Assembly: GCA_016182085.1 (NCBI GenBank)
Contig: JACOYB010000005.1
Location: forward strand, 1,013 to 65,012
Source of the DNA: Candidatus Magasanikiibacteriota bacterium
GTDB lineage: Bacteria > Patescibacteriota > Patescibacteriia > Magasanikbacterales > GWA2-37-8
DNA: 64,000 nucleotides
Reading direction: 5' to 3'
Positions 1 through 13,355 of the stretch are shown piece after piece. The notes beneath the pieces are model-generated. The model did not search any database. It was not told the DNA's origin and was given only the letters and a program-made list of their open reading frames with translations. Both the position numbers and the translations under genes were made by a program. Every line of letters begins with the position of its first letter. Within the stretch, counting starts at the first letter, position 1.

Positions 1-855
1 CAACTGTTTTTCAGGATTCGACTCTTTTTCAACATATTCAGAAATATCTGGAGTCACGGCATAGAGCGACTTAAACAACACCTTCTCTTCACCCATCTTT
101 CGTACCAACTTACTATAGTAACCTTTAGATACCGTGCAATCAGCATCAATAAAATCAATGATCGATTTAAGCTCGTCAGGATTAGCATTATTTTTTTGCG
201 CCTTTTTTAGCCTTTCCAAAGCAATATGCCCACCAATATTGCGTGCCTGACCTCCAGGATTATATTTATCATCTACAGCAAACATTTCGCTACTTGCATC
301 TATAGGAAAAATTTTAACACCAGACTCTACACATTCTTTAAAAATAGTTTTTTCATGCTCTGTTAACCCAAGCTGGCTAAGTTTTTCCCGCACACCGATT
401 ATAATTTCATCCAAAGCACCGCCTTCGATAAATTCTCTTTGAGCTATCTGTAATAAACGCAAACAGCGTAGGGTATTTTGATTTTCTTGAAAAGACGGCG
501 TATTACTTTTAGCATCTTCAGTTCGATTATTAATTACATAAAGCGTCTCCGATGAAATCTTAGTGTGAGCGCCTGCTTCATGACTAAGAGATTGTAATAG
601 ACGCCAAAAATTATTATTTTGCAATTCTCTATAAGCAGGGACAACTGTAACCACCTGCAGTTTATTATCTACCTCGGGTAGGTAATCTCCATACTTTGTA
701 ATGATATCATCATGGACGCGTTTAAATTCTCTTTGCCTTCTTTCCAAAAATGGTTTTCTCCAATCATAAAAATCACCTGATGAAATTGGTTCAGGTATTT
801 CTGAATTATGGCTGCCATTACTCATCGCGAAGTTTTGTTCTGGTGATCTGATCAT
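1..855 (-). CDS. Partial GT2-family glycosyltransferase. The N-terminal part is present and the C-terminus lies beyond the left edge.
   Basis: The reverse-strand ORF starts near 855 (ATG) and runs off the window. The translation contains a GT2-like N-terminal motif (LQVVTVVPAYRE) and a DxD-like IDADC. No stop codon occurs before position 1. Confidence 0.35.
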   Translation of the reverse strand, partial: MIRSPEQNFAMSNGSHNSEIPEPISSGDFYDWRKPFLERRQREFKRVHDDIITKYGDYLPEVDNKLQVVTVVPAYRELQNNNFWRLLQSLSHEAGAHTKISSETLYVINNRTEDAKSNTPSFQENQNTLRCLRLLQIAQREFIEGGALDEIIIGVREKLSQLGLTEHEKTIFKECVESGVKIFPIDASSEMFAVDDKYNPGGQARNIGGHIALERLKKAQKNNANPDELKSIIDFIDADCTVSKGYYSKLVRKMGEEKVLFKSLYAVTPDISEYVEKESNPEKQL

Positions 856-919
856 GGAATAGTGTATATCAATTCTGACAATCTCTACTCTATCACATCA
901 TTAAAATCGCTTCAATTAA

Positions 920-1100
920 CAATTTATTTACAGCGGAATACGATAAACTTGATTGGTTAGCCAAAAGGGGCTGGGGAATCCTGTCCGATTTTGGTGGATT
1001 TACGACGGTGCAGCGGGGATACGAAAAGTTACGAGGGGAATTTACGGAATAGGACGGGCGGAAGGAGGGGTTGGGGGAGGAATTCCGCCCGCCCACCGGT
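920..1100 (+). repeat. IR-A, the left inverted repeat of the defense island. It consists of a remnant of the recombinase 3' coding end (about 30 codons) followed by an 88-bp GC-rich core.
   Basis: Positions 1011-1098 are the reverse complement of 9983-10070 with 1 mismatch in 88 nt. Positions 938-1010 translate to FTAEYDKLDWLAKRGWGILSDFGGFTTVQ, which resembles the recombinase C-terminus encoded at 11555-11634. Confidence 0.8.
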
Positions 1101-1137
1101 GTGCTTTTTGACGATTTCAAGTTTTTCTTAACCTTCC

Positions 1138-1686
1138 CTATTTATAAAATAACTCATGATTACGAAGTTCTTTTTTTATATCTAAATAATTTGGAAGTGC
1201 TTCCTCAACTAAAGACCAGAATTTTCTGGAGTGATTAAATTCCTTCAAATGGCACATCTCGTGCACTATAATATAATCCTGGTGTTTTTGCGATAAAAAC
1301 ACTATTTTATAATTCAAATTTAGATTGTGCTTGCATGAACAACTACCCCAGCGAGTCTTTTGATTTTTAATAAAGATTTTATTGAACGAAAAACCATACA
1401 CCTTATTATAAAATGCAACTCGTTCATTCACAAGAGCAAATGCTTTATCTTTATTTTCTAGATAATCCTTGTTCGAAAAAGTGCGTATAGCCCTACTATC
1501 CACGCTCTTAAAAAATTGTATTTTGTCCCACACCCATTGTTTTTTATCGGTAATAAATTTTTCAATTATCGATTGCTGAACCCCAAAAGGACTCGTAATC
1601 ACAACACTTCCGTCACAATAGACCGCGAGACGCATTCGTTTTGCTCGCTTGCTTCTTTTGAGTTTATAGGGGATTTTCTTTTCCAT
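1138..1686 (-). CDS. YgjP-like (DUF45/WLM-type) zinc metallohydrolase. This family is commonly encoded next to hsdR.
   Basis: The HEMCH zinc-binding motif is present. The protein is 182 aa and lies immediately downstream of hsdR on the same strand. Confidence 0.55.
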   Translation of the reverse strand: MEKKIPYKLKRSKRAKRMRLAVYCDGSVVITSPFGVQQSIIEKFITDKKQWVWDKIQFFKSVDSRAIRTFSNKDYLENKDKAFALVNERVAFYNKVYGFSFNKIFIKNQKTRWGSCSCKHNLNLNYKIVFLSQKHQDYIIVHEMCHLKEFNHSRKFWSLVEEALPNYLDIKKELRNHELFYK

Positions 1687-1691
1687 ACGCT

Positions 1692-4607
1692 CTAGAATTT
1701 TTTAGTGATTATATCCACCAACCTATTCAAGAATTTCGGAAAATCTTTTACAACAAACCTGCCTTTATAATCTCGTAATATTATCTCCTGCAGCGTTTGT
1801 TTGATATCCTTTATAAAAACATCCCTCTTTGAGGATTCCTGCCACCCAGCATCAAGATCATCCTCTATACGAATTCGCAACTCCTTCACAAACTTTTTAA
1901 TCTCCTCATCTTTTCCACCTTCAATGAATTCCTGCGAGATTACATAGAGCGCGTACTCTTTTAAATCAAGCCCCAAATCTTTCGCTTCGCCCCCTTTTGT
2001 TCGGATATCTCTCATCAATTCTTCATACCGACGAATTCGTTCAGCAAGATCAATCTGATTCTGTTCAAACTCTTTACGAATAGCGGTAAGTCGCTCGCTG
2101 AACTTCTGGTAGGCTGGATTTTCATCTAGGTTGATTGAAATTTCTTGCTTGAGCATTTTCTCAAGATTCAATGCCTTTTCTTCCTCATCCATCCCTTTTA
2201 ATCGCTCGAGCGTATATAAATCATTCACGCGAAGTTCACGAAAATTCTTAGTGATTCCTTCATAATCAATAATATTACTTTTTTGAATTAATTCTCTAAC
2301 TTTCTCACCGTATTCTTCCAGTAAATATCTGTCGTCTTCACTTCGAAAATGTTTCAAAAATGCTAAATAAAAACTCGTTACCCACTCAAACTGGCGAATA
2401 TACTGCTTCAAGAATGGATCAGGCGATAAAAACTCAAACAAACTCTTGAGCTTCATATATTTCTCAACAAAGTATTTTTGTTTGTCTTGATTATCCATAA
2501 AAATCTTCAAGCATCGGCGAAGGTTATCCATCGACGGATCTTCGATATTCACTCCTGTAAATATCTTCATCATATCATTCAATACGTCCACAAATCTCTC
2601 TTTCACCCGTTCAATATCAATCATCGCTGAATCTATAACATCCTCATCAAAATCAAGCGCATCATACAAATTTCTTGTAATTCCATAATAATCAATAATT
2701 TTTCCCGCTTCTTTGTTTTTATACACACGATTTGTACGCGCAATCGCCTGCAAAAGGTTGTGGTCACGAAGTGGTTTATCGAGATACATCACCTGCTCTA
2801 TAGGCGCATCAAAGCCAGTAAGCAACATGTCGCACACTAAAAGAAATTTCAAAGACGATTTTGGATCTTTGAATCGTTCAATAATTTGTTCGCGTTCACG
2901 CTTGCTAGTGTTATACACTTTCAAATCATCAGCATCGCTATTTGGATCTCCTGGCGAATACACCACGGCTGACCATTCGGTAGGAATAAACTTATCAAGC
3001 AATTTCTTATAAGTCGCCACAGCTTCGCGGTCATACGCTACAATCTGCGCCTTAAAGCCATTTGGCTCAACATAGAGCTTGTAATGTTCAATAATGTCCC
3101 TTGCAACGGCTTCCATGCGTTTTGGCAATTTAACCAAAGCCGCTTTCTTACCATATTTCTTCACCAACTCGGTTTTTTGTTTATCTGGCAAATCTCCGGC
3201 AATTTCTTCAAACTTCTGATCAAGTTTTTCTTCATCAATAGAAAACTTAGAAAGTCGCGCTTCATAAGTCACCGGGATTGTCGCTCCGTCATCAATAGCT
3301 TGCTGAATGGAATAATAATCCAAATACCGTTTTCCCTCACCTTCATAATTTCGGAAAGTGTTTGTATGTGTTTTATCCACCGGAGTACCAGTGAATCCAA
3401 AGAAGAATGCTTTTTTAAACGCATTACGCATATTGATACCCGATACGCCCTCGTCGCCACGGTGTGCTTCGTCAGAAAGAATAATCACATTCTCGTCTAG
3501 ATTTTGTACTTTATCACCAAGTTCGGAAAACTTTTGAATGGTCGTGATGAAAATACCTTTCTCTGGTGATTGAATTTTTAGCTCTAAATCCTTACGAGAA
3601 GTGACACGAACAATATTTTTTCCTCCCGCATTAGTAAATGTTTCAAATATCTGATCGTCCAAATCTACGCGATCAACCAAAATAAACACCTTCGGATTAG
3701 CAAGTTGTTTATTGAAACGCAATTTCCATGCCGTAAAATACATTGTAAGCGTCTTGCCCGATCCTTGCGTATGCCAAATAAGCCCTTGTCGTTTTTCTTT
3801 ATTCACAACACGCTCCACAATTTTATTTGTTGCTCTCATTTGCTGATAGCGAGCCATTTTCTTCACCAATCTTTCTTTTTCTTTTTCAAATAAAATAAAG
3901 TTTTGAACGATATCCAAAAAGTTTGCTTTAGAGAGTAATGAAAAAAGTGTCATCTCCAGTTCTCCGCCTAGTTCTTTTTCGGCATTCTCATCACGCCACT
4001 GAAGAAAATATTGTTTTGGCGTACCGGTTGCACCGTAAACAGTTTTGAGCCCGTCACTGGCGATATTGAAACAGTTTGGAATAAATAATTTACGAGCAAC
4101 TTTTTCATATCGTTTTATTTGGTCAATACCATTCTCAAAACTAACTCCTTCGGAAGCTGTCGGACTTTTGGCTTCAATATCCACGAGCGGAAACCCGTTC
4201 ACAAAAATGATAATATCCGGACGAATATTTTCGGTGTCGCCTTCAAAATAGAACTGATTAGTAACGACAAATTGATTATTTTCCGGATTGTCAAAATCAA
4301 GCAGTTTGTAATCGTGCTTTTTTCCTGTAGATGAATTCTTAAGGTTGATCCCATCTCGTAATACTTTCAAAAAAGCTTCGTTGTTATCAATTTTTCTCAC
4401 CTCGCGAATCACATTCTTGATCTCGCTTTCGTTCGCAGTAGGATTGAGGGCAGAAAGCGCGCGTTCCAAAAGCGGAGTGGTGATGTATTCCGTCTCAAGT
4501 TCGCGATACTTCACAAACTCCTCCGGCTTTATATACTCAAAACCAAGCTTATCTTTAATAAACTTGATGATGTAATTTTCGATTGTAACTTGTTCGTTGA
4601 ATTTCAT
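1692..4607 (-). CDS. hsdR: Type I restriction enzyme R subunit (HsdR)
   Basis: The protein is 971 aa with helicase motifs (GSGKT Walker A, DEAH box in ILSDEAHRG). Its start overlaps the hsdS stop by 4 bp. Confidence 0.9.
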   Translation of the reverse strand: MKFNEQVTIENYIIKFIKDKLGFEYIKPEEFVKYRELETEYITTPLLERALSALNPTANESEIKNVIREVRKIDNNEAFLKVLRDGINLKNSSTGKKHDYKLLDFDNPENNQFVVTNQFYFEGDTENIRPDIIIFVNGFPLVDIEAKSPTASEGVSFENGIDQIKRYEKVARKLFIPNCFNIASDGLKTVYGATGTPKQYFLQWRDENAEKELGGELEMTLFSLLSKANFLDIVQNFILFEKEKERLVKKMARYQQMRATNKIVERVVNKEKRQGLIWHTQGSGKTLTMYFTAWKLRFNKQLANPKVFILVDRVDLDDQIFETFTNAGGKNIVRVTSRKDLELKIQSPEKGIFITTIQKFSELGDKVQNLDENVIILSDEAHRGDEGVSGINMRNAFKKAFFFGFTGTPVDKTHTNTFRNYEGEGKRYLDYYSIQQAIDDGATIPVTYEARLSKFSIDEEKLDQKFEEIAGDLPDKQKTELVKKYGKKAALVKLPKRMEAVARDIIEHYKLYVEPNGFKAQIVAYDREAVATYKKLLDKFIPTEWSAVVYSPGDPNSDADDLKVYNTSKREREQIIERFKDPKSSLKFLLVCDMLLTGFDAPIEQVMYLDKPLRDHNLLQAIARTNRVYKNKEAGKIIDYYGITRNLYDALDFDEDVIDSAMIDIERVKERFVDVLNDMMKIFTGVNIEDPSMDNLRRCLKIFMDNQDKQKYFVEKYMKLKSLFEFLSPDPFLKQYIRQFEWVTSFYLAFLKHFRSEDDRYLLEEYGEKVRELIQKSNIIDYEGITKNFRELRVNDLYTLERLKGMDEEEKALNLEKMLKQEISINLDENPAYQKFSERLTAIRKEFEQNQIDLAERIRRYEELMRDIRTKGGEAKDLGLDLKEYALYVISQEFIEGGKDEEIKKFVKELRIRIEDDLDAGWQESSKRDVFIKDIKQTLQEIILRDYKGRFVVKDFPKFLNRLVDIITKKF

Positions 4608-5746
4608 ATATTTGTTCGTACTACCCCACTCAACAAGTCCTGCATTAGGCCTTTCTTGAGGAGAGTAAGTTTTTCTTTTAATTTTTTATTGACCAAAATC
4701 TTTTTATCAACTGCGGAAAGAATTTCTGCAATCTCTTTTATTTCAGAGGTTTTTTTTGGCTTCGGTATTGGTATCATAAAAAGTCGATCCTTATTTAACT
4801 TCGGTTGAGTCATCCCCGTTAGATACGGCCCCAGATTAAGCATATTCAAATAATCTTGGACATATTGTTGTAAAAATTTATCTTCAAATCTTTGAATATG
4901 TGCATGATTATTCACCCAATACTTACCAGTTGCAGTAAAAGCAATAGGATAATTTCTATCTTTAAGATTCGCGCCATCTTCCGAAATTAGTAATAACGTT
5001 TCTTCAAAAATATAATCACTAACATAATCAACGATGCCTGTTGCGCCGTAGTAGGGATATTGTCCAGTGCTTCTTTTTGATTTAGTTATCGGAATGCGTT
5101 TGTTATCCAAGTTTTTAGAAATATCTTCCAAGCTCAACACATCCCACTCTTCCGGAATCTGTCCGATTTTTGTCTCCTTAAATTTTGTATGCCCAATCCC
5201 GCGAGTAAAAAGCTGTTGCATCAATCCGCGCTTGAGCTTTTCTGTCGCCTCAATCACTTCCTGCGTTTTCGCAATATCCTCATCCACCGCTCCCAAAATT
5301 TCGGCAATTTTTTGTTGTTCAGGGAACGGCGGAACCAACACTTCCAAATTCTGATATTGCGATATGTAGAATCGTTTATGACTTCCAGTAGGAAAATTAA
5401 CAGATTTCATTTTTGCATAAAAAAATCGCAAATCCACATCAGATCTTTTTTCTTTCAAAATTTTAATAGCTGATGACTTTATTTTAAACGGAAAATCAAC
5501 AAACTTACTATCAGTTGTAAAATCATCAAAGATGATTACTGGAAGATTTTTATAAACCCCAAAATCTTCATCCGTATAACCCAATACAAAAGACTTATTT
5601 GCCGTAAGTACGGGGGTCTTTGCTTTGTCGCTATAACTTGTACTTTTAACGATATAATTATCGGGACGCTCATAACCCAAAATATCGCTCAATTTTTTAA
5701 GCGACCACCCTTTTGGAATATTTTGTTGTGTGATGTTAGTTTTCAT
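4604..5746 (-). CDS. hsdS: Type I restriction-modification specificity subunit (HsdS)
   Basis: The protein is 380 aa with two target-recognition-domain halves and conserved central and C-terminal coiled regions (LKRGLMQQL / LKKGLMQDLL repeats). Confidence 0.8.
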   Translation of the reverse strand: MKTNITQQNIPKGWSLKKLSDILGYERPDNYIVKSTSYSDKAKTPVLTANKSFVLGYTDEDFGVYKNLPVIIFDDFTTDSKFVDFPFKIKSSAIKILKEKRSDVDLRFFYAKMKSVNFPTGSHKRFYISQYQNLEVLVPPFPEQQKIAEILGAVDEDIAKTQEVIEATEKLKRGLMQQLFTRGIGHTKFKETKIGQIPEEWDVLSLEDISKNLDNKRIPITKSKRSTGQYPYYGATGIVDYVSDYIFEETLLLISEDGANLKDRNYPIAFTATGKYWVNNHAHIQRFEDKFLQQYVQDYLNMLNLGPYLTGMTQPKLNKDRLFMIPIPKPKKTSEIKEIAEILSAVDKKILVNKKLKEKLTLLKKGLMQDLLSGVVRTNI

Positions 5747-5748
5747 AC

Positions 5749-6648
5749 CTAACTATCAATTCTAATAATCTTAGACGCGTGATTTGGATCTTCGGTTTTC
5801 TCCTGAATTGTAAGTTGTCTATAATACCTACAAGAATATCTTAAATAATCTTCTAACTCATCCAGATCTATATTGCCCTTCTTCAAATCAACGGGGTAGA
5901 TTGAAATAATCAATTTCTCACAGATATTAAGTGTTTTAGAAGTTTCTACATAACTTGCAATGATTTCCTTGATTGATCCTGTGCGAGATAAGTAAGAGTC
6001 CCTTCCATGTTGAGTATTAATCAGTGGAATAGTGACTGCGCTATCCTTAGCAGATTCCAATGCAACGTAAGACCACAGTCCATTCAGGGCTTGAATAAAA
6101 TCATCAATTTCAGATTTCACTCGATTATTACCATTTTTTACAGAATTCACTACGAGATAAAACTTTTTTCCATTTTGCTCAACTTCAATTGTTTTTCCAA
6201 CATCATGGTTAGTCCCAATAGACAACTTAGCGGAAATATCAGTATTTAAGTGTTCGGTTTTTCCATTGTAAAATTTCTGAATTACTTGATTCTGAATACT
6301 ATTTGCCTTTTGAACATTCCCCCCAAGAGACATATCAAATTGATCATTTACAGGGACCACAAGAGCACCTTTATTTTCAAAAGCATCGCCGACTCTGATT
6401 TCCAGAAAATTATCTTTACCGCGCAAGTGATAACCAAAGTGTGATTTCGGTTTATTTTTTACAATAGCAAATAGAAGGATAATAATAAAAACAAAGGCGA
6501 AAACATCAACTTTTTTTAGATAAACATCGGCAGAACCTGCTGTGCTATAACTGGCAATCTCTACAAATAGCCAAAAGATACCTACAAATGACACAAGGTC
6601 CACTAAAATAAATTTCCATTTTTTTATCCACCTCTTTAATAAACTCAT
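5749..6648 (-). CDS. Two-TM N-terminus plus a Macro-like domain protein. It is a candidate type II Thoeris ThsA-like effector.
   Basis: There are two N-terminal hydrophobic helices (residues ~12-32 and 45-63). The soluble domain carries a macro-like motif, GDAFENKGALVVPVNDQFDMSLGGNV. The gene overlaps the upstream TIR-like gene by 4 bp. Confidence 0.45.
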   Translation of the reverse strand: MSLLKRWIKKWKFILVDLVSFVGIFWLFVEIASYSTAGSADVYLKKVDVFAFVFIIILLFAIVKNKPKSHFGYHLRGKDNFLEIRVGDAFENKGALVVPVNDQFDMSLGGNVQKANSIQNQVIQKFYNGKTEHLNTDISAKLSIGTNHDVGKTIEVEQNGKKFYLVVNSVKNGNNRVKSEIDDFIQALNGLWSYVALESAKDSAVTIPLINTQHGRDSYLSRTGSIKEIIASYVETSKTLNICEKLIISIYPVDLKKGNIDLDELEDYLRYSCRYYRQLTIQEKTEDPNHASKIIRIDS

Positions 6649-7148
6649 AGCCCTAGATTTTTATAAGTTTCTTCATTATACCTGTAAGCTCCTGATTTTC
6701 TCTCTCCTCTATATTTTTTATCCAACATCTCCCACTCATCTAACGCTTTTGCAATAATTTTTTGGTTAAAACTAACGTGCACAGCCAACTCATCAACAAG
6801 AGTTGCCGGACAAAGACTTCCATCCTTATACCTTTTTCCATTCAGATTTATAACAATAATTGGCAAACTTCTTTTAACAGCTTGTTCGACCTCCCAGAGT
6901 ACAAACTTACGAAGCAATTTTGTTTTTTCACCGACAAGCAAGACAAAAACTTTCGTATTTTGGAGTCTTTCACGAAGCTTGGCTTTAATTGTTTCCTCGC
7001 TTGCCCATGACATTAAATTATTTAAATCATGAGCATCATAAAAGTTAAATGGTGTATTATCATTTTGCTTCCATGCTTGCATCAGCCGATAATAACGAAT
7101 GTCATTATCGGCATCAAACGCAACATAAGTTTTATTTGTGTAGGCCAT
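6645..7148 (-). CDS. TIR-like (DUF1863 / ThsB-like) protein
   Basis: The protein is 167 aa. Its N-terminal YVAFDADNDIRYYRLMQAW and central KVFVLLVGEKTKLLRKFVLWEVEQA match the TIR-like DUF1863 pattern (FSFHYE..D, VLIGS.T..S.WV..EI). Confidence 0.55.
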   Translation of the reverse strand: MAYTNKTYVAFDADNDIRYYRLMQAWKQNDNTPFNFYDAHDLNNLMSWASEETIKAKLRERLQNTKVFVLLVGEKTKLLRKFVLWEVEQAVKRSLPIIVINLNGKRYKDGSLCPATLVDELAVHVSFNQKIIAKALDEWEMLDKKYRGERKSGAYRYNEETYKNLGL

Positions 7149-7175
7149 ATATTTTTAATATTTTAATTCTAAAAA

Positions 7176-7988
7176 TTATTCCCCACTTTCAATATTCTTT
7201 ACCTTCTTAGACTTCTTTATTCTCGTATGCGCCTTTCCTATCGCGTCCGGCGTTGGCAGATGTTCCGGCATAGTGCCGCCAAGGCTAGCAATGGTGTTGC
7301 GAACTTTTTGACCAACTTCATAATGCGCCAGGCTAGCGTTAGTTTGACCTTGTATATTTTCGCGCTTTATTTTTGCATCAGTTTGAGTGGCGCGAAATAA
7401 GTTGGCTGCTAACTCTTCACTATTCATGTGGTCTAAAATCTTTTGCGACTTCTTCAATCCCTTTTTTTCATGAATATCCTGCATTGTTAGTCCGCCATAC
7501 AAACCTTTATAGCCATAATTCTGGAAAATTGCATAGTTTTCTACCCCTGCTATAGCCGCGGTTTTAGTTAATGCCGTATTGTGTTTTTTCATTTCTTCAC
7601 GCAAATAAACACGACTATGATCTTCAATCAAATTATCAGTTTTTTCTTGGCGTCGGGTCTGAATTGCAAAATAGGTTTGACCTTTAGCAACCACAACCTT
7701 GGTTGGGTCGGAATTTTGCACTATCAAATAACAGGCGTACCGAGATAAATATATGGTATCTATCGGCCTTTCTGCTCCAGAGCCAATCTGGACCATTTCG
7801 TCCATATGGACAAAATGGTTGTGGATAACTTCCCCGCTATTTTCACAAGCAATTTGCGCTTTATCAATAACATTCTGAAATTTACGATAGTCTGGATACT
7901 CTAAAGCCTTGGCCAAATCACGTGAAGACCAATATTCCGCACCATTATTATCTATTCTTTTTATTGATTCAAAGGTATTGTCTGCCAT
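7176..7988 (-). CDS. dinD: DinD-like (DNA-damage-inducible protein D / Bro-N-like) protein
   Basis: The N-terminal FESIKRIDNNGAEYWSSRDLAKALEYPDYRKFQNVIDKAQIAC and the following YLSRYACYLIVQNSDP resemble the DinD family. Confidence 0.5.
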   Translation of the reverse strand: MADNTFESIKRIDNNGAEYWSSRDLAKALEYPDYRKFQNVIDKAQIACENSGEVIHNHFVHMDEMVQIGSGAERPIDTIYLSRYACYLIVQNSDPTKVVVAKGQTYFAIQTRRQEKTDNLIEDHSRVYLREEMKKHNTALTKTAAIAGVENYAIFQNYGYKGLYGGLTMQDIHEKKGLKKSQKILDHMNSEELAANLFRATQTDAKIKRENIQGQTNASLAHYEVGQKVRNTIASLGGTMPEHLPTPDAIGKAHTRIKKSKKVKNIESGE

Positions 7989-7993
7989 ATTAT

Positions 7994-9679
7994 TTAGTAG
8001 TTTAATTCTTTTAAATAGCCTGCAACTTTTTTGTCGGCTGCTTCACGCTCTTTTTCAATCTCCTTCACCTCGCTCCACACTGTTTTCACATCCACCACTT
8101 CCTCATCCTCGCCGTTTTCTACATAGCGTCGCACATTGAGATTAAACTCGTTTTCCTTTAGCTCTTTGATATCCACAACTCGAGCGTATTTTTCAATATC
8201 TCGGTAGCCCTCAAACGCCAACACCATTTTTTCTATATCTTTTTTTCGTAAGCGGTTCTGGTTTTTTCCTTCCTCAAAATCTTGTTCGGCATCAATGATG
8301 AGAATTTTGTTCTTGTGACCCTCTGGTTTATTTTTGTTAAATATCACAATTGCTGCCGGAATACCCGTACCATAAAAAAGTTTTGCAGGAAGAGCAATGA
8401 TGGCTTCGATTAAATCGTTTTTGATAAGATTTTCGCGGATACGACCTTCTGCGCCACCACGGAAAAGCACACCGTGTGGAAGCACGATTCCGGCACGGCC
8501 ATTTTCGTTCATTGATTTCACCATGTGAAGCACGAAAGCATAATCGGCTTTTTTGGCTGGAGGCATTTCGTAGCCGGCAACTCGGCCGTATTTATCATGT
8601 TTAAATATTTCGTATTCCCATTCACTTATAGAATACGGAGGATTAGCAACGCAGATGTCGAACGTCTTCAGCGAACCGTCTGGGTTTAGAAACTTCGGAT
8701 CAGCGAGCGTGTCTCCACGCTGAATGTCGGCACTATCAAGCCCGTGTAGGAACATGTTAATCTTTGCGATTGCATATGTCCCGATATTAATTTCCTGTCC
8801 ATAAAGATAAAGCGAACGGGCTTTTTTGTCTCCCTCTTGGTCTTTTAGATGATGATACGCCTCCAAAAGGAAGCCTCCAGAGCCAACAGCCATGTCATAT
8901 ATATGATCCTTCTCGTGCGGCTTTAAGATGCTAATAATCACACGCTCAACTTCGCGTGGAGTGTAGAATTCTCCACCTTTTTTACCGGCATCCGCCGCAA
9001 ATTGCTCGATTAGATATTCGTACGCATCGCCAAGAAGATCAGAACTGATATAATTGTCTCCAAAATTAAATTGTGAGAAGTGATTTATAAGGCGCTGGAT
9101 TGTTTCATTTGGAAATTTATCTTTATTTGCAAAATCTAGATCATCAAAAATCTTGTCGAGCTTTGGACTATTTGCATTTGTGAGCTTATCAAAAATCCCG
9201 TTTAGTTTATGGCCGATTCCTTCGGCTTGTTTTTGAATTACTTCCCATCGGCAATCTTTTGGAACTTGAAAACGGTGATTGTGGTCTGCGCGCGCAATTT
9301 CTTCATCGTGATATTCTTCTAAAACTTTTTTATACTCTTCATCCCATGAGTCACTAATGCGTTTGTAAAAAAGAAGCCCAAAAATATATTTTTTATAATC
9401 CGAACTATCTATCTTCCCGCGCAAAATATCGGCGCTTCTCCAAAGAAATTGCTTGAGTTGAGTTAGATTCATCTTTCCTTCATCATCTGCGCTAGGAACA
9501 CCGAGCTCTTTTATAATGCTTTTATCGTTTGCGATACGCTCAATATCTTCGGGTTTATATTTTCGATCTTTTCGAGGGCCAACTCGCAAAGGAGTAATGA
9601 GGCCCCTTTTTTCCCAGTTACGAAGAGTGTCTTGATGAATTCCAAATATTTTCGAAACTTCGCTGATTGAGAGTAACAT
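7994..9679 (-). CDS. hsdM: Type I RM DNA methyltransferase (HsdM), with an N-terminal MerR/excisionase-like HTH extension
   Basis: The NPPY catalytic motif (VANPPYSISEW) and the HsdM N-terminal domain (MNLTQLKQFLWRSADILRG) are present. The first ~65 aa (SISEVSKIFGIHQDTLRNWEKRGLI) look like a MerR-type HTH fused in-frame. Confidence 0.85.
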   Translation of the reverse strand: MLLSISEVSKIFGIHQDTLRNWEKRGLITPLRVGPRKDRKYKPEDIERIANDKSIIKELGVPSADDEGKMNLTQLKQFLWRSADILRGKIDSSDYKKYIFGLLFYKRISDSWDEEYKKVLEEYHDEEIARADHNHRFQVPKDCRWEVIQKQAEGIGHKLNGIFDKLTNANSPKLDKIFDDLDFANKDKFPNETIQRLINHFSQFNFGDNYISSDLLGDAYEYLIEQFAADAGKKGGEFYTPREVERVIISILKPHEKDHIYDMAVGSGGFLLEAYHHLKDQEGDKKARSLYLYGQEINIGTYAIAKINMFLHGLDSADIQRGDTLADPKFLNPDGSLKTFDICVANPPYSISEWEYEIFKHDKYGRVAGYEMPPAKKADYAFVLHMVKSMNENGRAGIVLPHGVLFRGGAEGRIRENLIKNDLIEAIIALPAKLFYGTGIPAAIVIFNKNKPEGHKNKILIIDAEQDFEEGKNQNRLRKKDIEKMVLAFEGYRDIEKYARVVDIKELKENEFNLNVRRYVENGEDEEVVDVKTVWSEVKEIEKEREAADKKVAGYLKELNY

Positions 9680-9711
9680 ATTAATTTTTGACTATTTTTT
9701 TAATTTTTCTT

Positions 9712-9741
9712 ATGATATCATAGGTCTGTATGAATTGTCAA
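9712..9741 (-). promoter_or_regulatory. Candidate sigma70-like promoter for the hsdM operon
   Basis: On the minus strand, TTGACA is followed by an 18-nt spacer and TATCAT, about 35 nt upstream of the hsdM ATG. Confidence 0.35.
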
Positions 9742-9859
9742 GGAATAATCAAAAATTCATATATTTTCATAGGTTTGATAGGGAGTTCCTACCTCCTCCG
9801 AGCGCGCACGGGTGGGCGGGGCAAGCGCGGAGAAAAGAAAAGTTTGCTTTTGGCCACCG

Positions 9860-9940
9860 TAAAGTTCGAGCCTATAATCGAAATGAGTGAGTGAAATATT
9901 TTGCTTGCAAAATTGTTTCCGAGCGAATGAGTTTATATCT
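9860..9940 (+). repeat. Dispersed intergenic repeat family, copy a
   Basis: CGAAATGAGTGAG, a hairpin, then CGAGCGAATGAGTTTATAT. Confidence 0.6.
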
Positions 9941-9982
9941 TAATATTTTTTTACAGGTTGTTTGGCAGTTTTTAAAAAGCGC

Positions 9983-10145
9983 ACTCGCCTAGGCGAGGCG
10001 GGCGGAATTCCTCCCCCAACCCCTCCTTCCGCCCGTCCTATTCCGTAAATTCCCCTCGTAATTTTTCGTATCCCCGCTGCGAAAACCGAAATGGGGTTAA
10101 AATTGGTAAAATCCCCCAACCTTTTTTGGCTAACCAATCAAATTT
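9983..10145 (-). repeat. IR-B, the right inverted repeat of the defense island (inverted copy of IR-A)
   Basis: The 88-bp core matches IR-A with 1 mismatch. The outer part begins GATTGGTTAGCCAAAA, as IR-A does, and then diverges (~70% identity). Small palindromes sit at the inner ends (CACCGGTG in A, CTCGCCTAGGCGAG in B). Confidence 0.8.
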
Positions 10146-10206
10146 TTTGCCTTTGTCCGCTCGGCGGACGCCAAAAGCAAACTTTTCTAATATAATGTAA
10201 TTTTAT

Positions 10207-11694
10207 ATGGCCAAATACTTTTTGTACGCTCGCAAGTCTAGCGAATCGGAAGAGCGTCAGGTTATGTCGATTGACGCTCAAATCGACGAGTTAAAAGAAT
10301 TTGCCGTCAAAGAAAAACTTGAAATCGTCGCCTCGCTTTGCGAGGCAAAAACTGCCAAACAACCTGGCCGAACTTTGTTCGGCGAAATGTTATCGCGAAT
10401 TGATGCCGGCGAGGCCGACGGCATTTTGGCTTGGCACCCCGACCGCCTAGCCCGCAACAGCGTGGATGGCGGTCGGATAATATATATGTTGGACACTGGT
10501 AAAATAAATTCCCTCAAATTTCCAACGTTTTGGTTTGACAACACACCGCAAGGAAAGTTTATGCTTAATATTTCTTTCGGCCAAAGCAAATATTATGTAG
10601 ATAATCTAAGTGAAAATGTGAAACGTGGAATAAGGCAAAAACTCCGCAAAGGAATTTGGCCGGGGAAAGCTCCGTTTGGATATAATAATGACCTGCGCCA
10701 TCACACCATACTCCCCGACCCCGAAAAGCATAAACTTGTAAAAAGGATTTTTGAATTATATGCGACCGGCGAATATACTTTTGAACAACTAATACAAAAA
10801 TTTGATATTCGTACTAAGACGAACAAAATAATGATGCCGGGCGACATGCAACATATTCTCAAAAATCCTTTTTACAGCGGCGTGTTTCGTTTCAACAACG
10901 AACTCCACCAGGGTACGCATAAACCGATAATAACAAAGAAACTTTTTGACGATGCCCAAGCGGTAATGGCAGCCAGAGGAAAACGCCGCAAGAAAAGCAG
11001 TCATGGATATATTTTTACCGACCTAATGAGTTGCGGGAATTGTGGCCGAGCCATTACCGCCGAAAAGCAAAAAGGTCATGTTTATTATCGCTGTACAAAG
11101 AAACGAACTAACTGCGATGAAAAATATATCCGCGAGGAAGAACTGCTAAGCCAGTTTAGAGACACATTACAAAAAGTTTCTTTGTCAGACGACTGGACCA
11201 AAAATTTGCTTGCTAAACTGGACGAGGAGCAAGCATCCGCAATCCAGTCGTCTAGCGTCCTTGTTCAGGCCGTAGAAGGACAAATAATGCCCATTAAGAC
11301 TAAGATGGACAAACTCCTTGATTCCCATTTAGACGGCATTATTGATAAACAAGATTACGTAAACAAAAAAGAAAAACTCCTAAATGAAAAACTTGATCTG
11401 GAAGCCAAAATTAAAGAAGTGAGGAACAAGGGCAACGATTGGCTCGAACCGATGAGGGAATTTATTTTAGACAGTTGCCAAGCCAAAAAAATCGCCGCGA
11501 ACGGCGATTCTCTTCAAATTCGAACATTTCTTAAAAAAATAGGCTCGAACTTTACGGTGAAAGGCAAAAAATTTGATTGGTTAGCGAAAAGGGGCTGGAA
11601 AATTATGCCCGATTTTGGCCGGTTTCCGACTGTGCAGGCCCGCTCGGATTCGAACCGAGAACCTCGGTTTTGGAGACCGATGTTTTACCATTGA
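10207..11694 (+). CDS. Large serine recombinase (resolvase catalytic domain, recombinase domain and zinc ribbon)
   Basis: The N-terminal YARKSS..SIDAQ contains the catalytic Ser region. Cys-rich CGNCG...YYRC and coiled-coil segments are present. The protein is 495 aa. The 3' end overlaps tRNA-Trp on the opposite strand, so the true stop may lie earlier. Confidence 0.85.
   Translation: MAKYFLYARKSSESEERQVMSIDAQIDELKEFAVKEKLEIVASLCEAKTAKQPGRTLFGEMLSRIDAGEADGILAWHPDRLARNSVDGGRIIYMLDTGKINSLKFPTFWFDNTPQGKFMLNISFGQSKYYVDNLSENVKRGIRQKLRKGIWPGKAPFGYNNDLRHHTILPDPEKHKLVKRIFELYATGEYTFEQLIQKFDIRTKTNKIMMPGDMQHILKNPFYSGVFRFNNELHQGTHKPIITKKLFDDAQAVMAARGKRRKKSSHGYIFTDLMSCGNCGRAITAEKQKGHVYYRCTKKRTNCDEKYIREEELLSQFRDTLQKVSLSDDWTKNLLAKLDEEQASAIQSSSVLVQAVEGQIMPIKTKMDKLLDSHLDGIIDKQDYVNKKEKLLNEKLDLEAKIKEVRNKGNDWLEPMREFILDSCQAKKIAANGDSLQIRTFLKKIGSNFTVKGKKFDWLAKRGWKIMPDFGRFPTVQARSDSNREPRFWRPMFYH
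11573..11634 (+). repeat. Copy C of the island repeat. It is the intact recombinase 3' end, abutting the tRNA-Trp 3' terminus.
   Basis: The 62 nt are ~80% identical to 950-1011 (direct orientation). Similarity stops exactly at the tRNA-Trp discriminator base. Confidence 0.7.
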
Positions 11695-11706
11695 AACTAC
11701 AGGCCT
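11635..11706 (-). tRNA. tRNA-Trp (anticodon CCA)
   Basis: The sequence folds as a cloverleaf: acceptor AGGCCTG/CGGGCCT, anticodon loop CTCCAAA, T-loop TTCGAAT. It closely resembles E. coli tRNA-Trp. Confidence 0.85.
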
Positions 11707-11716
11707 AAGGAACAAA

Positions 11717-11755
11717 CCCCGCCCGAAAATTATCAGAGCGGGGTTTATTTTTTTA
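11717..11755. terminator. Hairpin terminator (CCCCGC..GCGGGG followed by a T-run) between tRNA-Trp/recombinase and rpmG
   Basis: A 6-bp GC stem is followed by TTTATTTTTTT on the plus strand. A weaker T-run follows on the minus strand. Confidence 0.5.
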
Positions 11756-11908
11756 CTTGGTCTCTTTATGAGTGGTGTGCTTCTTGCAAAACTTGCAGAA
11801 CTTTTCCAACTCCAAACGATTCTTCAAAACTTTTTTATTTTTGTTTGGAAAATAGTTCATACGTTTGCATTCCGTACACTCCATTTTCACCCTATTATCT
11901 TGGGACAT
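11753..11908 (-). CDS. rpmG: Ribosomal protein L33 (absent from the ORF track because it is shorter than 60 aa)
   Basis: Translation gives [51 protein letters not shown]. This is the classic L33 signature (ECTECK...LEL.K.C..C.KHT.HKETK). Confidence 0.85.
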
Positions 11909-11947
11909 ATTTTTAAATAAATTATTAATTTTTTAAAACTCGACTCG

Positions 11948-12020
11948 AGCCGTTGTCGGGAATTGAACCCGAGACCTTTTCCTTACCATGGAAATGCTCT
12001 ACCATCTGAGCTACAACGGC
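11948..12020 (-). tRNA. tRNA-Thr (anticodon GGT)
   Basis: Cloverleaf: acceptor GCCGTTG/CAACGGC, anticodon stem TTTCC/GGAAA, loop ATGGTAA. Confidence 0.8.
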
Positions 12021-12091
12021 ATTGATAGTTATAAAGTTAAAAGTTATAAAGTCCAACCAAACTTTCAACTTACGCCGCTCGCGCGGCGTTG

Positions 12092-12173
12092 TGGGTGGAG
12101 TAGGATTCGAACCTACGAAGGCGGAGCCAACAGATTTACAGTCTGCTCCCTTTGACCGCTCGGGAATCCACCC
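12092..12173 (-). tRNA. tRNA-Tyr (anticodon GTA, long variable arm)
   Basis: GGGTGGATTCCCGAGCGGTCAAAGGGAGCAGACTGTAAATCTG...GGTTCGAATCC closely resembles E. coli tRNA-Tyr. Confidence 0.85.
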
Positions 12174-12194
12174 ATTTGACTTTAATTTAAAGTC

Positions 12195-12270
12195 TGGAGC
12201 CGTCTCGGGGGCTCGAACCCCGGACCCACAGTTTACAAAACTGTTGCTCTACCAGCTGAGCTAAGACGGC
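12195..12270 (-). tRNA. tRNA-Thr (anticodon TGT), with CCA encoded
   Basis: GCCGTCTTAGCTCAGCTGGTAGAGCAACAGTTTTGTAAACTGTGGGTCCGGGGTTCGAGCCCCCGAGACGGCTCCA. Confidence 0.85.
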
Positions 12271-12287
12271 GATTTACTAGATTATTA

Positions 12288-12420
12288 TACTACCACAGTT
12301 TATGCCGCCTCGAGGCGGCACCCCGCTGTGACGGTGGCAAAACTGTTGCTCCCCGCCCGCAACGCCTGAGCAAGCTCAAGCTTGTGATGGCGGGCAGGTA
12401 CCAGCTGAGCTAAGACGGCA
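12288..12420 (-). pseudogene. Disrupted 5' copy of tRNA-Thr(TGT), interrupted by two hairpin-containing insertions. It lacks the T-arm and acceptor 3' half.
   Basis: Three segments are identical to the adjacent tRNA-Thr: its first 21 nt, GAGCAACAGTTTTG, and TAAACTGTGG. They are separated by a 48-nt and a 35-nt insert. The second insert contains the perfect palindrome GCCGCCTCGAGGCGGC. Confidence 0.6.
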
Positions 12421-12446
12421 CTTCACTGGCCTCGTCATGCCAGTCT

Positions 12447-13355
12447 TTATATTTTATAAATTCTATCTTTAAGGTTATGTAATTTCTGATTTTCGGGATT
12501 GACTAACCGCAAATCGCCATACGCCTTAATAGCCAATGGCTTATCGCCGCATATTATAGCAATTTCAATCAGGAAGTCAAGGTACTTTGGATTTTGAGGT
12601 TCTAGCTCTACAGCCTGCAATATGGACTCTTTAGCCACCTGGGGCTGGCCTACCTTTAACAGCAGTTCGGAAAGGTGGTAAAATCGAGGTGAAAACGAAT
12701 CATTGACCAAAACCGCCCGTTGGTAATACTCTATCGCCTCTTCCAAATCACCCTGACTTTCGGCAATTTCTGCTAGTTTTACGAGGACATTGTCATCATC
12801 CGGTTCCATTTTGATAAGGAACTGATACGTTTGCCTGGCTTCTTCTACGGAATTTTTAGCTAGATATGTATCGCCTAATCCTCTATACGCGCTCGTGGAT
12901 TTAGGGTCATTTTTTATGGCTGTAATAAATCGTTCCTCGGCTTGATCGTAATTTCCCTCATTTAAATGCTGTTCGCCCTCAATTATTAATTGTGATAATT
13001 TTTCTTCTTGGTTTTCCACCGGCAGAGCTTCATTCTTTAATTTTGTTTTTAATGCCTGCTCGTGATGCAGCATGCGTTCAATTTTACCGACATAAATTCT
13101 AAATTGCAGCTGCAGTTTGCCCCACAACGCTTTGCGCAGCGGCCCAAAGATTTTCATGATCTTTTTTTTGAGCAAACTTGTATTTTCTTCAATGCGTTTG
13201 TTTATAATCTCTTTTTTCTTGCGATATATTTTTTCTTCCTGCAAATTTTTAATATCTAAATTGGCGAGCTGCGGAAATTTATGAATAACAACAAACACGA
13301 CTACTCCCAAGGCAATGGCACCGATTATTAAAAATATCGCGGACAACATATACAT
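12447..13355 (-). CDS. Membrane-anchored TPR-repeat protein
   Basis: An N-terminal TM helix is followed by several TPR-like repeats (AYRGLGDTYLAKNSVEEA, AIEYYQRAVLVN). Confidence 0.6.
   Translation of the reverse strand: MYMLSAIFLIIGAIALGVVVFVVIHKFPQLANLDIKNLQEEKIYRKKKEIINKRIEENTSLLKKKIMKIFGPLRKALWGKLQLQFRIYVGKIERMLHHEQALKTKLKNEALPVENQEEKLSQLIIEGEQHLNEGNYDQAEERFITAIKNDPKSTSAYRGLGDTYLAKNSVEEARQTYQFLIKMEPDDDNVLVKLAEIAESQGDLEEAIEYYQRAVLVNDSFSPRFYHLSELLLKVGQPQVAKESILQAVELEPQNPKYLDFLIEIAIICGDKPLAIKAYGDLRLVNPENQKLHNLKDRIYKI

Follow-up and report, generated by a model that had tools for sequence, protein, structure and literature searches.

Serine integrases are commonly portrayed as enzymes of phages that aim at protein genes, and islands at tRNA genes are credited to tyrosine integrases. 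A large serine integrase acts alone in integration and requires a directionality factor for excision; a coiled coil set into its zinc ribbon domain governs directionality. Tyrosine-integrase islands of the Islander/TIGER type hit the 3' part of a tRNA gene, carry defence cargo, generate a direct repeat from a duplicated part of the tRNA and are known to build tandem arrays. The SSV1-type integrases of archaeal viruses, which are tyrosine recombinases, have attP within the integrase gene, and this gene is split in two. The phage-type large serine integrases (Listeria A118/LI, phiC31, Bxb1, SPbeta SprA) have a three-domain architecture and recombine at short, asymmetric sites that share a tiny core and leave no long duplication, and the recognition motif of their zinc ribbon lies 5 bp nearer the crossover in attB than in attP (PMC3783163). 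Small, cargo-bearing elements that insert site-specifically at tRNA genes are represented by the Prochlorococcus tycheposons; 27 of 937 of these have a large serine recombinase and tyrosine recombinases predominate (bioRxiv 10.1101/2020.12.28.424599).

We analyzed a 64,000-nt stretch of contig JACOYB010000005.1 from a Candidatus Magasanikiibacteriota bacterium (the window). The region from about 1010 to 11637 is probably an integrated mobile element of roughly 10.6 kb that a large serine integrase placed directly at the tRNA-Trp 3' end, preceded at 906-1013 by the likely relic of an earlier family member (Table 1). The enzyme and its relatives share with the phage-type integrases the three domains and the short asymmetric sites with a tiny core, and most of the related loci examined also show the 5-bp displacement of the motif. 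Unlike them, the family is remote in sequence, is directed at the 3' end of a tRNA rather than a protein gene, apparently has its attP within the 3' coding end of its own recombinase, retains a second, inverted attP, consists of tiny islands that are not phages, and seems to leave the left half of its target unconstrained. In contrast to the tyrosine-integrase islands, the tRNA is unduplicated and the crossover would sit at its very end. As in the SSV1 type, integration alters the 3' end of the integrase, but the change is confined to the last ~12 codons, which give way to codons antisense to the tRNA, and an inverted spare native 3' end is kept. The tycheposons differ in their hosts, and a word search of the preprint returned neither a recombinase gene reading into a tRNA nor inverted att copies (bioRxiv 10.1101/2020.12.28.424599). 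No published account of the family, or explanation for the inverted attP, was found in open-access papers.

Table 1. Features of the element and its borders in the window.
Feature	Position	Strand	Basis or remark
T_A, in-frame tail relic (~36 last codons) of an older recombinase	906-1013	+	tblastn, DNA identity
Left-junction core GCAG	1010-1013	+	left junction compared with internal site and right junction; identity passes here from the tail arm to X
X1, element-side arm P'	1010-1093	+	inverted match to 9997-10080 at 99% identity
a', exact 20-nt copy of recombinase nt 104-123, inverted, far end of X1	1110-1129	-	
YgjP-like peptidase	1138-1686	-	Pfam
HsdR	1692-4607	-	Pfam, PADLOC
HsdS	4604-5746	-	Pfam, PADLOC
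ThsA-like Macro protein	5749-6648	-	PADLOC ThsA1 (Macro), E = 1.2e-38; Pfam ThsA_Macro
ThsB TIR protein	6645-7148	-	PADLOC ThsB1, E = 4e-72; Pfam ThsB_TIR
Bro-N/DinD-like PDC-S13 protein	7176-7988	-	Pfam
HsdM with MerR HTH	7994-9679	-	Pfam, PADLOC
up', copy of recombinase upstream -36..-18	9836-9854	-	exact match
c', copy of recombinase nt 1333-1353	9855-9875	-	exact match
b', exact copy of recombinase nt 141-160, far end of X2	9954-9973	-	
Internal inverted attP-like site, T_B (10159-10077) + X2 (10080-9997)	9997-10159	-	
Large serine recombinase, 495 aa	10207-11694	+	Pfam PF00239, PF07508, PF13408
T_C, the recombinase's own 3' tail, P arm	11551-11637	+	
Right-junction core GCAG	11634-11637		
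tRNA-Trp(cca), intact	11634/11635-11706	-	ARAGORN; Rfam 61.5 bits, full length

The recombinase consists of a Resolvase domain (PF00239, E = 1.3e-19, residues 5-150), a C-terminal recombinase domain (PF07508, E = 7.9e-13) and a Zn_ribbon_recom domain (PF13408, E = 6.6e-10). This combination of Resolvase-type N-terminus, recombinase domain and zinc ribbon is that of the large serine integrases. Residues Y7, R9, K10 and S11 of the catalytic region are invariant in an alignment of 26 homologues. More than 7,900 homologues were found at E < 1e-20, and the closest solved structure is that of the SPbeta integrase, a remote match (E = 3e-4). No tyrosine recombinase was detected by Pfam between positions 1 and 12000. 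As an earlier reading made from the sequence alone had proposed (the sequence-only reading), the recombinase is the terminal gene of the element; its 3' end runs antisense through the 3' half of the tRNA, the last 19-20 codons before the stop being ARSDSNREPRFWRPMFYH. Four tRNAs are the only RNA families in 1-13000 (Rfam, E ≤ 0.1). A hairpin within the 5' region of the recombinase gene has a folding z-score of -1.95, which is not decisive.

The proposed cargo of restriction-modification, Thoeris-like and DinD genes was confirmed as a type I system, a ThsA/ThsB pair and a Bro-N/DinD-like gene (Pfam, PADLOC), with the entire cargo (1138-9679) on the minus strand. By gene content, the predicted ThsA and ThsB fit Thoeris. 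A sequence that matches a promoter well and would serve hsdM lies at 9741-9712, inside the cargo segment. The GC content of the island is 35-39%, compared to 41-46% in the right flank. The left-flank gene (4-825) matches no Pfam family and has no homologue among 5.8 billion proteins, and is therefore useless as a synteny anchor.

At the tRNA-Trp site, relatives hold different cargo or none, in agreement with the suggestion of an integrative element at the 3' flank of this tRNA. In L001 (contig k141_449041), the recombinase arc is 90% identical to that of the window at the DNA level and the right flank is syntenic, while the cargo and the left flank are unrelated to the window's. L107 matches L001 at 100% over 9,372 nt up to ..GGGCCTGC, where a terminator and a LytR gene follow and the element is absent; the tRNA-Trp flank is likewise unoccupied in L112-L115. 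The gene order secE-nusG-rplK-rplA, which had been expected beside tRNA-Trp, is absent both from the window and from relatives with an unoccupied site. A two-sided empty site was not recovered, since the sequence of L107 beyond the tRNA is unlike the left flank of L001 (5.9 kb compared), and a reconstructed attB of L001 had no match in metagenome contigs. The nine matches to a reconstructed attB of L015 were discarded; none is syntenic, and seven flank bases plus the tRNA-Ser end account for them by chance.

Among 68 informative loci, defined as relatives whose sequence extends past the end of the recombinase ORF, a minus-strand tRNA overlaps the recombinase 3' end in about 57. Ten isotypes are targeted (Trp, Gln, Ser, Asn, Arg, Pro, Gly, Leu, Glu and Ala), and 66 of the 120 best homologues have D/E-S-N C-terminal peptides, which are the antisense translation of the tRNA T-arm. 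In 23 loci, arms are exchanged among the left junction (arbitrary sequence B joined to X), the internal site (tail T joined to X) and the right junction (T joined to the tRNA), at the discriminator/CCA end of the tRNA. The shared core measures 2-9 nt in 19 of these 23 and 18 nt in L045; our script resolved none in the window, L071 or L074, and the GCAG of the window was read by eye. In 20 of 21 loci, X has a YCGAAC motif whose distance from the core exceeds that of the tRNA's TCGAAC by exactly 5 bp, an offset that is the attP/attB signature of serine integrases (PMC3783163). The window's own X has only a weak T-arm mimic (5/9) at the +5 offset and a better copy, 8/9, at -5, as read directly off the sequence.

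The catalysis and its direction can be reconstructed from this anatomy as follows. attP would comprise X and the terminal ~80 nt of the recombinase gene (T), and attB an arbitrary downstream sequence and the 3' half of tRNA-Trp (B' arm), the recombinase recognizing the tRNA T-arm and the motif copy in X that is 5 bp farther from the crossover. The crossover would fall within GCAG at the discriminator, and tRNA-Trp would stay intact for that reason. Integration would split attP, with X passing to the left junction as X1 and the recombinase keeping T; loss of its native last 12 codons and terminator would explain why it now reads antisense into the tRNA. X1 encodes the native tail of the recombinase (..Q, then RGYEKLRGEFTE and a stop codon), contains a GC-rich hairpin, and is 88-91% identical to L001 5903-6011. 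The hairpin is kept at 89-95% across loci whose recombinases are only ~57% identical; its folding z-scores are near 0 and not decisive. Excision would produce a circle with the T_C/X1 junction ...CCGACTGTGCAG/CGGGGATACGAAAAG and a restored T_A/tRNA target ...ACGACGGTGCAG/GCCCGCTCGGATTCG.

No circular junction was seen, and no candidate directionality factor is conserved across relatives. A small HTH gene of the XRE family often lies nearby, with the up' motif upstream of it in L007, L017 and L020. Its product (L007 4465-4680, L017 9019-9231) is possibly a repressor acting at the GCCAAAAGCAAACTTTTCT motif, and also a candidate directionality factor.

The recombinase tail recurs in direct orientation to the left of the element. 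This repeat had been described as 950-1011 versus 11573-11634; the similarity is real (51/62, 82%), with the register one base off on the left (949-1010 is correct). In full it covers 949-1013 versus 11573-11637 (83% identical), or, in a longer register, 927-1013 versus 11551-11637 (78%), and past 1013 and 11637 the identity of the flanks drops to 21%. The junctions fall at about 1010-1013 and 11634-11637, where they had been anticipated (near 1010 and 11634). Because the right-hand GCAG takes in the base just 3' of the tRNA, the discriminator itself and two bases of the acceptor stem, the similarity ends at the discriminator, as claimed, only to within 2-3 nt. T_A, now the chromosome-side arm of the left junction, is still in frame (IASINNLFTAEYDKLDWLAKRGWGILSDFGGFTTVQ versus LKKIGSNFTVKGKKFDWLAKRGWKIMPDFGRFPTVQ), with 20 of 36 residues identical by tblastn (E = 1.4e-7 within the window), well beyond chance.

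Direct repeats of 62-87 nt that bracket an element and end at a tRNA, a pattern seen equally in L045, could be taken for the attL/attR duplication of a classical tRNA island. This reading is highly improbable. The enzyme is a serine recombinase, and the repeat lies outside the tRNA, whereas a tyrosine-integrase island would have a displaced 3' fragment of the tRNA as its repeat. The left copy is an in-frame yet diverged coding relic. Furthermore, no such repeat exists in 20 of 23 related loci, in which only a core of 2-9 nt is shared, as a serine integrase would lead one to expect, and what precedes the left junction bears no relation to the tail (22-43% identity), so the tail repeat does not serve as the signature of integration that the sequence-only reading saw in it. 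A tail-like left arm is limited to loci with an older recombinase gene upstream (L045 and L061), and there it belongs to this second recombinase gene.

Judging from the tandem arrays in related loci, the direct repeat most likely represents what remains of the 3' end of an earlier recombinase gene that was displaced. In L045, an older, frameshifted recombinase copy (83-91% amino acid identity) leads into the left junction. L061 contains two full recombinase genes that are 52% identical, with the X that follows the first matching the X2 of the second at 100%. In L009, L036, L042 and L065, X-like sequence follows the recombinase tail and occurs only once in the locus, representing either a tandem array or another state. 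In the window, the order of events would be that an incoming element recombined with the right junction of a resident (old tail joined to tRNA), and that most of the older recombinase gene was deleted afterwards, leaving T_A. For the serine integrases that have been studied, attP and a right junction are not a permitted pair of substrates (PMC3783163).

That attP x attR is not a canonical reaction (PMC3783163) speaks for another route to the relic, namely homologous recombination or unequal crossing-over between related elements with no integration into a resident right junction. T_A and T_C are 78-83% identical, and the recombinase copies of L045 are similar enough for exchange. However, the junction in L061 is precise at the core despite recombinases of such low identity, and the similarity between T_A/X1 and T_C/tRNA stops exactly at GCAG, as in a site-specific event; we regard homologous exchange as an unlikely origin. 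In close relatives such as L045, homologous recombination in the tail would yield the same product.

About 20 related contigs end at or just past the repeated X, which might raise the suspicion that the repeats are an assembly artefact or a chimera of a metagenome-assembled genome. This is scarcely credible, as assemblers break contigs at an exact repeat of 200 nt when the repeat is real, and the architecture recurs across dozens of assemblies made independently by different projects, among them a record titled complete genome, CP174360.1 (L075). We also set these breaks aside as evidence of inversion, the 200-nt exact repeat being a sufficient cause.

The direct pair of repeats had been noticed earlier; the inverted repeats, which are the real hallmark of the element, had been missed. 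A third copy of the tail, T_B, lies inverted at 10077-10159 and adjoins X2, which forms an 84-nt inverted repeat with X1; the two are set apart by one A/G difference 15 nt into X. The element carries, between cargo and recombinase, a second complete attP-like site in inverted orientation. An inverted tail copy is present in about 46 related loci, mostly 98-100% identical to the recombinase tail. T_B and T_C of the window are 97% identical over the outer 31 nt only and 71% identical overall, differing near the core, and the internal site of the window may no longer be a recombination substrate.

Serine recombinases include invertases, and the cargo is bracketed by a 167-nt inverted repeat (927-1093 and 9997-10159; 99% in the X part). 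A resident switch that flips the 8.9-kb RM/Thoeris cassette to vary defence expression is nonetheless very improbable. With the promoter inside the cargo segment, a flip would alter nothing obvious. Both orientations and switching of expression would mark a serine-invertase switch, whereas a' lies by the left junction and b' by the internal site, giving a single orientation of the cargo arc, in about 14 readable loci. The recombinase arc is reversed in one locus, L007. The cargo is wholly different between close relatives, and the target tRNAs vary.

Short copies of the recombinase gene accompany these sites. About 14 related loci have an a'-type fragment that stops at the same boundary (nt 123), and the order of up' and c' is conserved. 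Nested self-insertion at the hairpin (recombinase nt 124-140), inversions and RNA pairing were each considered for the origin of a', b' and c', and none explains both the conserved boundaries and the 100% identity. The inverted attP is 98-100% conserved in most loci, as are the exact short copies.

The left half of the target seems to matter little to the enzyme, so a right junction could still act as an attB. As a tentative and rather doubtful role for the internal site, the recombinase might recombine the right junction with this inverted attP and flip its own gene, acting as a self-inverting integrase switch. The flipped arc would have the T_B/tRNA junction ...CATTTCGGTTTTCGCAG/GCCCGCTCGG, with T_C/X2 as the partner junction. 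If so, the recombinase in the antisense state would read against the tRNA operon with a tRNA-encoded C-terminus. In the co-directional state it would have its native C-terminus and terminator and read with the tRNA operon, possibly driven by read-through, and self-inversion could stand in for a directionality factor. Another possibility is that a folded single strand, with X1 paired to X2 and T_B to T_C, restores attP as a duplex when these competence-dependent bacteria take up single-stranded DNA.

Members of the family number in the thousands and are found mostly in Patescibacteria, as well as in genomes labelled Nitrospira, Brocadia, Marinimicrobia, Ignavibacteriota and others; a search of 2.9 million viral contigs (IMG/VR) returned only 2 relatives. 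Minimal relatives carry a single unrelated cargo gene. On this evidence, the predicted tRNA-targeting serine-integrase islands are a very large family in uncultivated bacteria, in which a T-arm-reading integrase would insert islets of 1-10 kb with defence or other cargo at tRNA genes of at least ten isotypes, some members forming tandem arrays. Integrases for a universally conserved motif with a loose second half-site could be useful engineering tools. Such islets would account for the shuffling of defence genes in small-genome uncultivated bacteria.

The recombinase gene of the window is unbroken, and its 3' end overlaps an intact tRNA-Trp gene on the opposite strand. Its C-terminal codons (ARSDSNREPRFWRPMFYH, then a stop) are the antisense of tRNA-Trp, the W codon being the complement of the tRNA CCA anticodon. 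Upstream of tRNA-Trp lie tRNA-Thr, tRNA-Tyr, tRNA-Thr and rpmG. The sequence-only reading had described a direct repeat of the recombinase tail flanking an integrative element. This repeat is present, with its left coordinate shifted by one base (949–1010 versus 11573–11634, 82% identity). Identity is 83% between 949–1013 and 11573–11637 and 78% for the wider pair, 927–1013 and 11551–11637, and falls at once to 21% past 1013/11637. The final bases common to both repeats are GCAG (11634–11637), which spans the tRNA discriminator. The left copy (T_A) is in frame and protein-like, sharing 20 of 36 residues with the recombinase tail (tblastn, E = 1.4e-7); judged by its translation, it is a diverged coding relic, a chance match being excluded.

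What that reading overlooked is a set of inverted repeats. The 84-nt segment following the left tail copy (X1) recurs as X2, inverted and 99% identical according to a repeat finder. Fused to X2 is one more tail copy (T_B), the third in the window and likewise inverted; its end lies ~50 nt ahead of the recombinase start. Tail and X translate as ...DWLAKRGWGILSDFGGFTTVQ running directly into RGYEKLRGEFTE and a stop, followed by a GC-rich hairpin, and together resemble the native terminus of the recombinase gene. The three resulting sites have arms in common pairwise. Around the cargo there are, in addition, short exact copies of parts of the recombinase gene and its upstream region.

Features of the window, with the composition of the three attachment-site copies
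Feature	Position	Strand or orientation	Remarks
Partial ORF, at least 274 aa	4–825	minus	window left edge; GC 37%, island-like
Left site			T_A joined to X1
X1	1010–1093		84 nt
Copy a'	1110–1129	inverted	exact copy of recombinase nt 104–123
Copy up'	9836–9854		exact copy of recombinase upstream −36 to −18
Copy c'	9855–9875		exact copy of recombinase nt 1333–1353
Copy b'	9954–9973		exact copy of recombinase nt 141–160
Internal site		inverted	T_B joined to X2
X2	9997–10080	inverted
T_B	10077–10159	inverted
Large serine recombinase, 495 aa	10207–11694	plus	Pfam Resolvase, Recombinase, Zn_ribbon_recom
Hairpin GCCTCGC-TTT-GCGAGGC	10330–10346		perfect, 7 bp; recombinase 5' coding region, codons for ASLCEA
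Right site			recombinase's own tail (T_C) joined to tRNA
tRNA-Trp(cca)	11634/11635–11706	minus	intact; ARAGORN and Rfam

In an alignment of 23 loci, the left junction, internal site and right junction swap arms cleanly at a short common core (for example GCGG, GCTG or TGGTGG; GCAG in the window), which coincides with the tRNA discriminator/CCA end. In 20 of the 23, the sequence flanking the left junction on its left bears no relation to the tail (22–43% identity). The inner X has a YCGAAC motif, a mimic of the tRNA T-loop TCGAAC. Compared with the tRNA motif, its distance from the core is greater by exactly 5 bp in 20 of 21 loci. This shift matches the rule of Rutherford et al. that the attB zinc ribbon domain motif is 5 bp nearer the centre than in attP (PMC3783163), and at the level of sequence it identifies X as the P' arm and the tRNA as the B' arm. 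On this evidence, the element acts as an attP x attB system of the serine-integrase type. The motif evidence is weaker for the window X and its clade: the match at the +5 offset is 5 of 9 (GTTACGAGG versus GATTCGAAC), and a better T-loop copy, GGATACGAA, is found at −5. T_B and T_C are 71% identical overall; they reach 97% over the outer 31 nt only and diverge in the ~50 nt adjacent to the core. The window recombinase probably does not use the internal site as a substrate. Since the left and right junctions are unbroken, excision would be formally possible.

More than 7,900 homologues of the recombinase were found at E<1e-20, mostly from Patescibacteria MAGs, with others labelled Nitrospira, Brocadia, Saganbacteria, Marinimicrobia and Ignavibacteriota; the family is almost absent from viral contigs. 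C-terminal D/E-S-N peptides, the antisense translation of the tRNA T-arm, occur in 66 of the 120 best homologues. The locus counts that follow are hand tallies from tables of 82 fetched loci. A minus-strand tRNA (Trp, Gln, Ser, Asn, Arg, Pro, Gly, Leu, Glu or Ala) overlaps the recombinase 3' end in about 57 of the 68 loci that reach past the ORF end. About 46 of these have an inverted tail copy (42–133+ nt, mostly 98–100% identical), which terminates exactly at the tRNA junction and ends 50–290 nt upstream of the recombinase start. Of 31 loci tested whose upstream sequence was long enough, 26 have a further copy of the segment beyond this inverted tail; it is located farther upstream (71–144+ nt, 93–100% identical) and marks the left junction. 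Cargo between the X copies ranges from about 1 kb (one unrelated gene) to about 9 kb. Some MAGs contain two elements at different tRNAs (L067 and L078 in one MAG, L038 and L049 in another).

Both orientations of the recombinase arc occur in nature, the tRNA-convergent one outnumbering the opposite by roughly 57 to 1. The exception, L007, has the order tRNA-Trp, decayed inverted tail, and a recombinase reading away from the tRNA; its native tail (NWRCAFEKIRTEFAKN, then a stop) is followed by X, b', c', an operator-like motif and an XRE gene. That the cargo arc keeps a single orientation in about 14 loci speaks against a switch that inverts the cargo. A few family members without an inverted tail copy have the tRNA 3' end duplicated in short direct repeats close to the recombinase tail (L054, 2807–2828 and 2967–2988; L058, 2533–2570 and 2899–2936) and may represent a different or decayed site arrangement. 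In four others (L009, L036, L042 and L065), the tail is joined to X-like sequence with an AGAAC-type motif. This sequence occurs once per locus and has no tRNA close by; such loci may be tandem arrays, free forms or some other state.

Across a whole clade, the far end of X1 and that of X2 have exact copies of the a' and b' type (16–38 nt, from recombinase nt ~90–123 and 141–160), whose limits at nt 123 and 141 are conserved. The hairpin in the recombinase gene lies between their 20–38 nt source pieces. X also contains a ~39-nt GC-rich element, GGGCGGAAGGAGGGGTTGGGGGAGGAATTCCGCCC (window 1055–1093 and 9997–10035), which is 89–95% conserved though the recombinases are only ~57% identical (also L005, L008, L014, L015, L017, L020, L035 and L096). 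Its loop is G-rich or C-rich on the recombinase-sense strand, depending on lineage, and its predicted folding energy is ordinary (z about 0). An operator-like motif with an internal palindrome, GCCAAAAGCAAACTTTTCT, is located upstream of the recombinase (10165–10188), with a second copy at 9836–9859; L007 has it at 2705–2735 and 4348–4368. At the cargo-side copy, relatives have a ~70-aa XRE-family HTH gene, which adjoins the up'/c' fragments in L007, L017, L020, L094 and L096 and is absent from the window. One homologue, P0099, is a recombinase-XRE fusion.

Comparisons with relatives give evidence that the element has been mobile at this same site. In L001, and also in L003 (Candidatus Magasanikbacteria RIFOXYD1_FULL_40_23), the recombinase arc and tRNA share 90% DNA identity with the window. 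X of L001 matches at 91%, and synteny extends through the right flank, with a TPR protein, triose-phosphate isomerase and an M16 peptidase. No relationship to the window is seen in the L001 cargo, with its small HTH proteins and NucS-like gene, or in the left arm and left flank. With the right-flank TPR protein as anchor for unoccupied tRNA-Trp sites, we found L107, which shows 100% identity with L001 for 9,372 nt, as far as ...GGGCCTGC. It departs exactly at the crossover; what comes next is a rho-independent terminator and then a LytR-family gene in convergent orientation, without a recombinase. The more distant L112/L113 and L114/L115 likewise have a terminator or other genes after tRNA-Trp; secE-nusG, previously expected beside tRNA-Trp, is found in none of these loci. 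The far flank of L107 does not match the L001 left flank over the 5.9 kb available, and direct scans with reconstructed attB sequences failed to recover a two-sided empty site. A rho-independent terminator lies within ~15 nt of the crossover at the unoccupied sites of L107 (9488–9520) and L114 (8560–8600), and likewise in the left arm of the L001 left junction (5855–5895). Because terminators adjoin the crossover, the element appears to insert between the tRNA and the operon terminator.

A tail-like left arm is uncommon, being seen among the 23 aligned loci in the window (82%) and L045 (83%). In L045, a second recombinase gene, frameshifted and 83–91% identical, runs into the left junction, and its end forms the arm. 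L061 has two full recombinase genes in tandem, 52% identical to each other, and X after the first is 100% identical to X2 of the second. The simplest reading of the window direct repeat is serial insertion. A newcomer would recombine with the right junction of a resident (old tail and tRNA), a reaction that the loose specification of the target's left half would permit, and would displace the older element from the tRNA; the older recombinase gene would later have been deleted to 108 nt (906–1013). Homologous recombination inside the tail is a rival to this site-specific route, and between near-identical elements it would give the same product. The ORF at the window left edge may be cargo of an older element. 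It matches no Pfam family, and a search of 5.8 billion proteins gave no homologue at E≤1e-5; given this and its island-like GC, the accessory region probably extends past the window.

Within the cargo, a Thoeris-like ThsB (TIR)/ThsA (Macro) pair and a Bro-N/DinD-like PDC-S13 gene (5749–7988) are embedded in a type I RM operon, where they separate hsdS from hsdM. HsdM has an N-terminal MerR-type HTH, and the N-terminus of the ThsA-like protein looks hydrophobic.

By enzyme and site logic, the element classes as a large-serine-integrase element; its recombinase is only remotely related to the solved integrases. Full-text searches of open-access papers gave no description of a serine-integrase family targeting tRNA 3' ends, of an attP within the integrase's own 3' end or of an internal inverted attP, a silence that is weak evidence in each case. 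Tycheposons include a few serine recombinases, for which neither a serine-integrase family targeting tRNA 3' ends nor an embedded or inverted attP is mentioned, and a survey of Patescibacteria islands nowhere mentions recombinases or tRNAs. As far as the open-access literature goes, this unusual family of recombinase elements is apparently hitherto undescribed; the window element is one of its ordinary members and is somewhat decayed.
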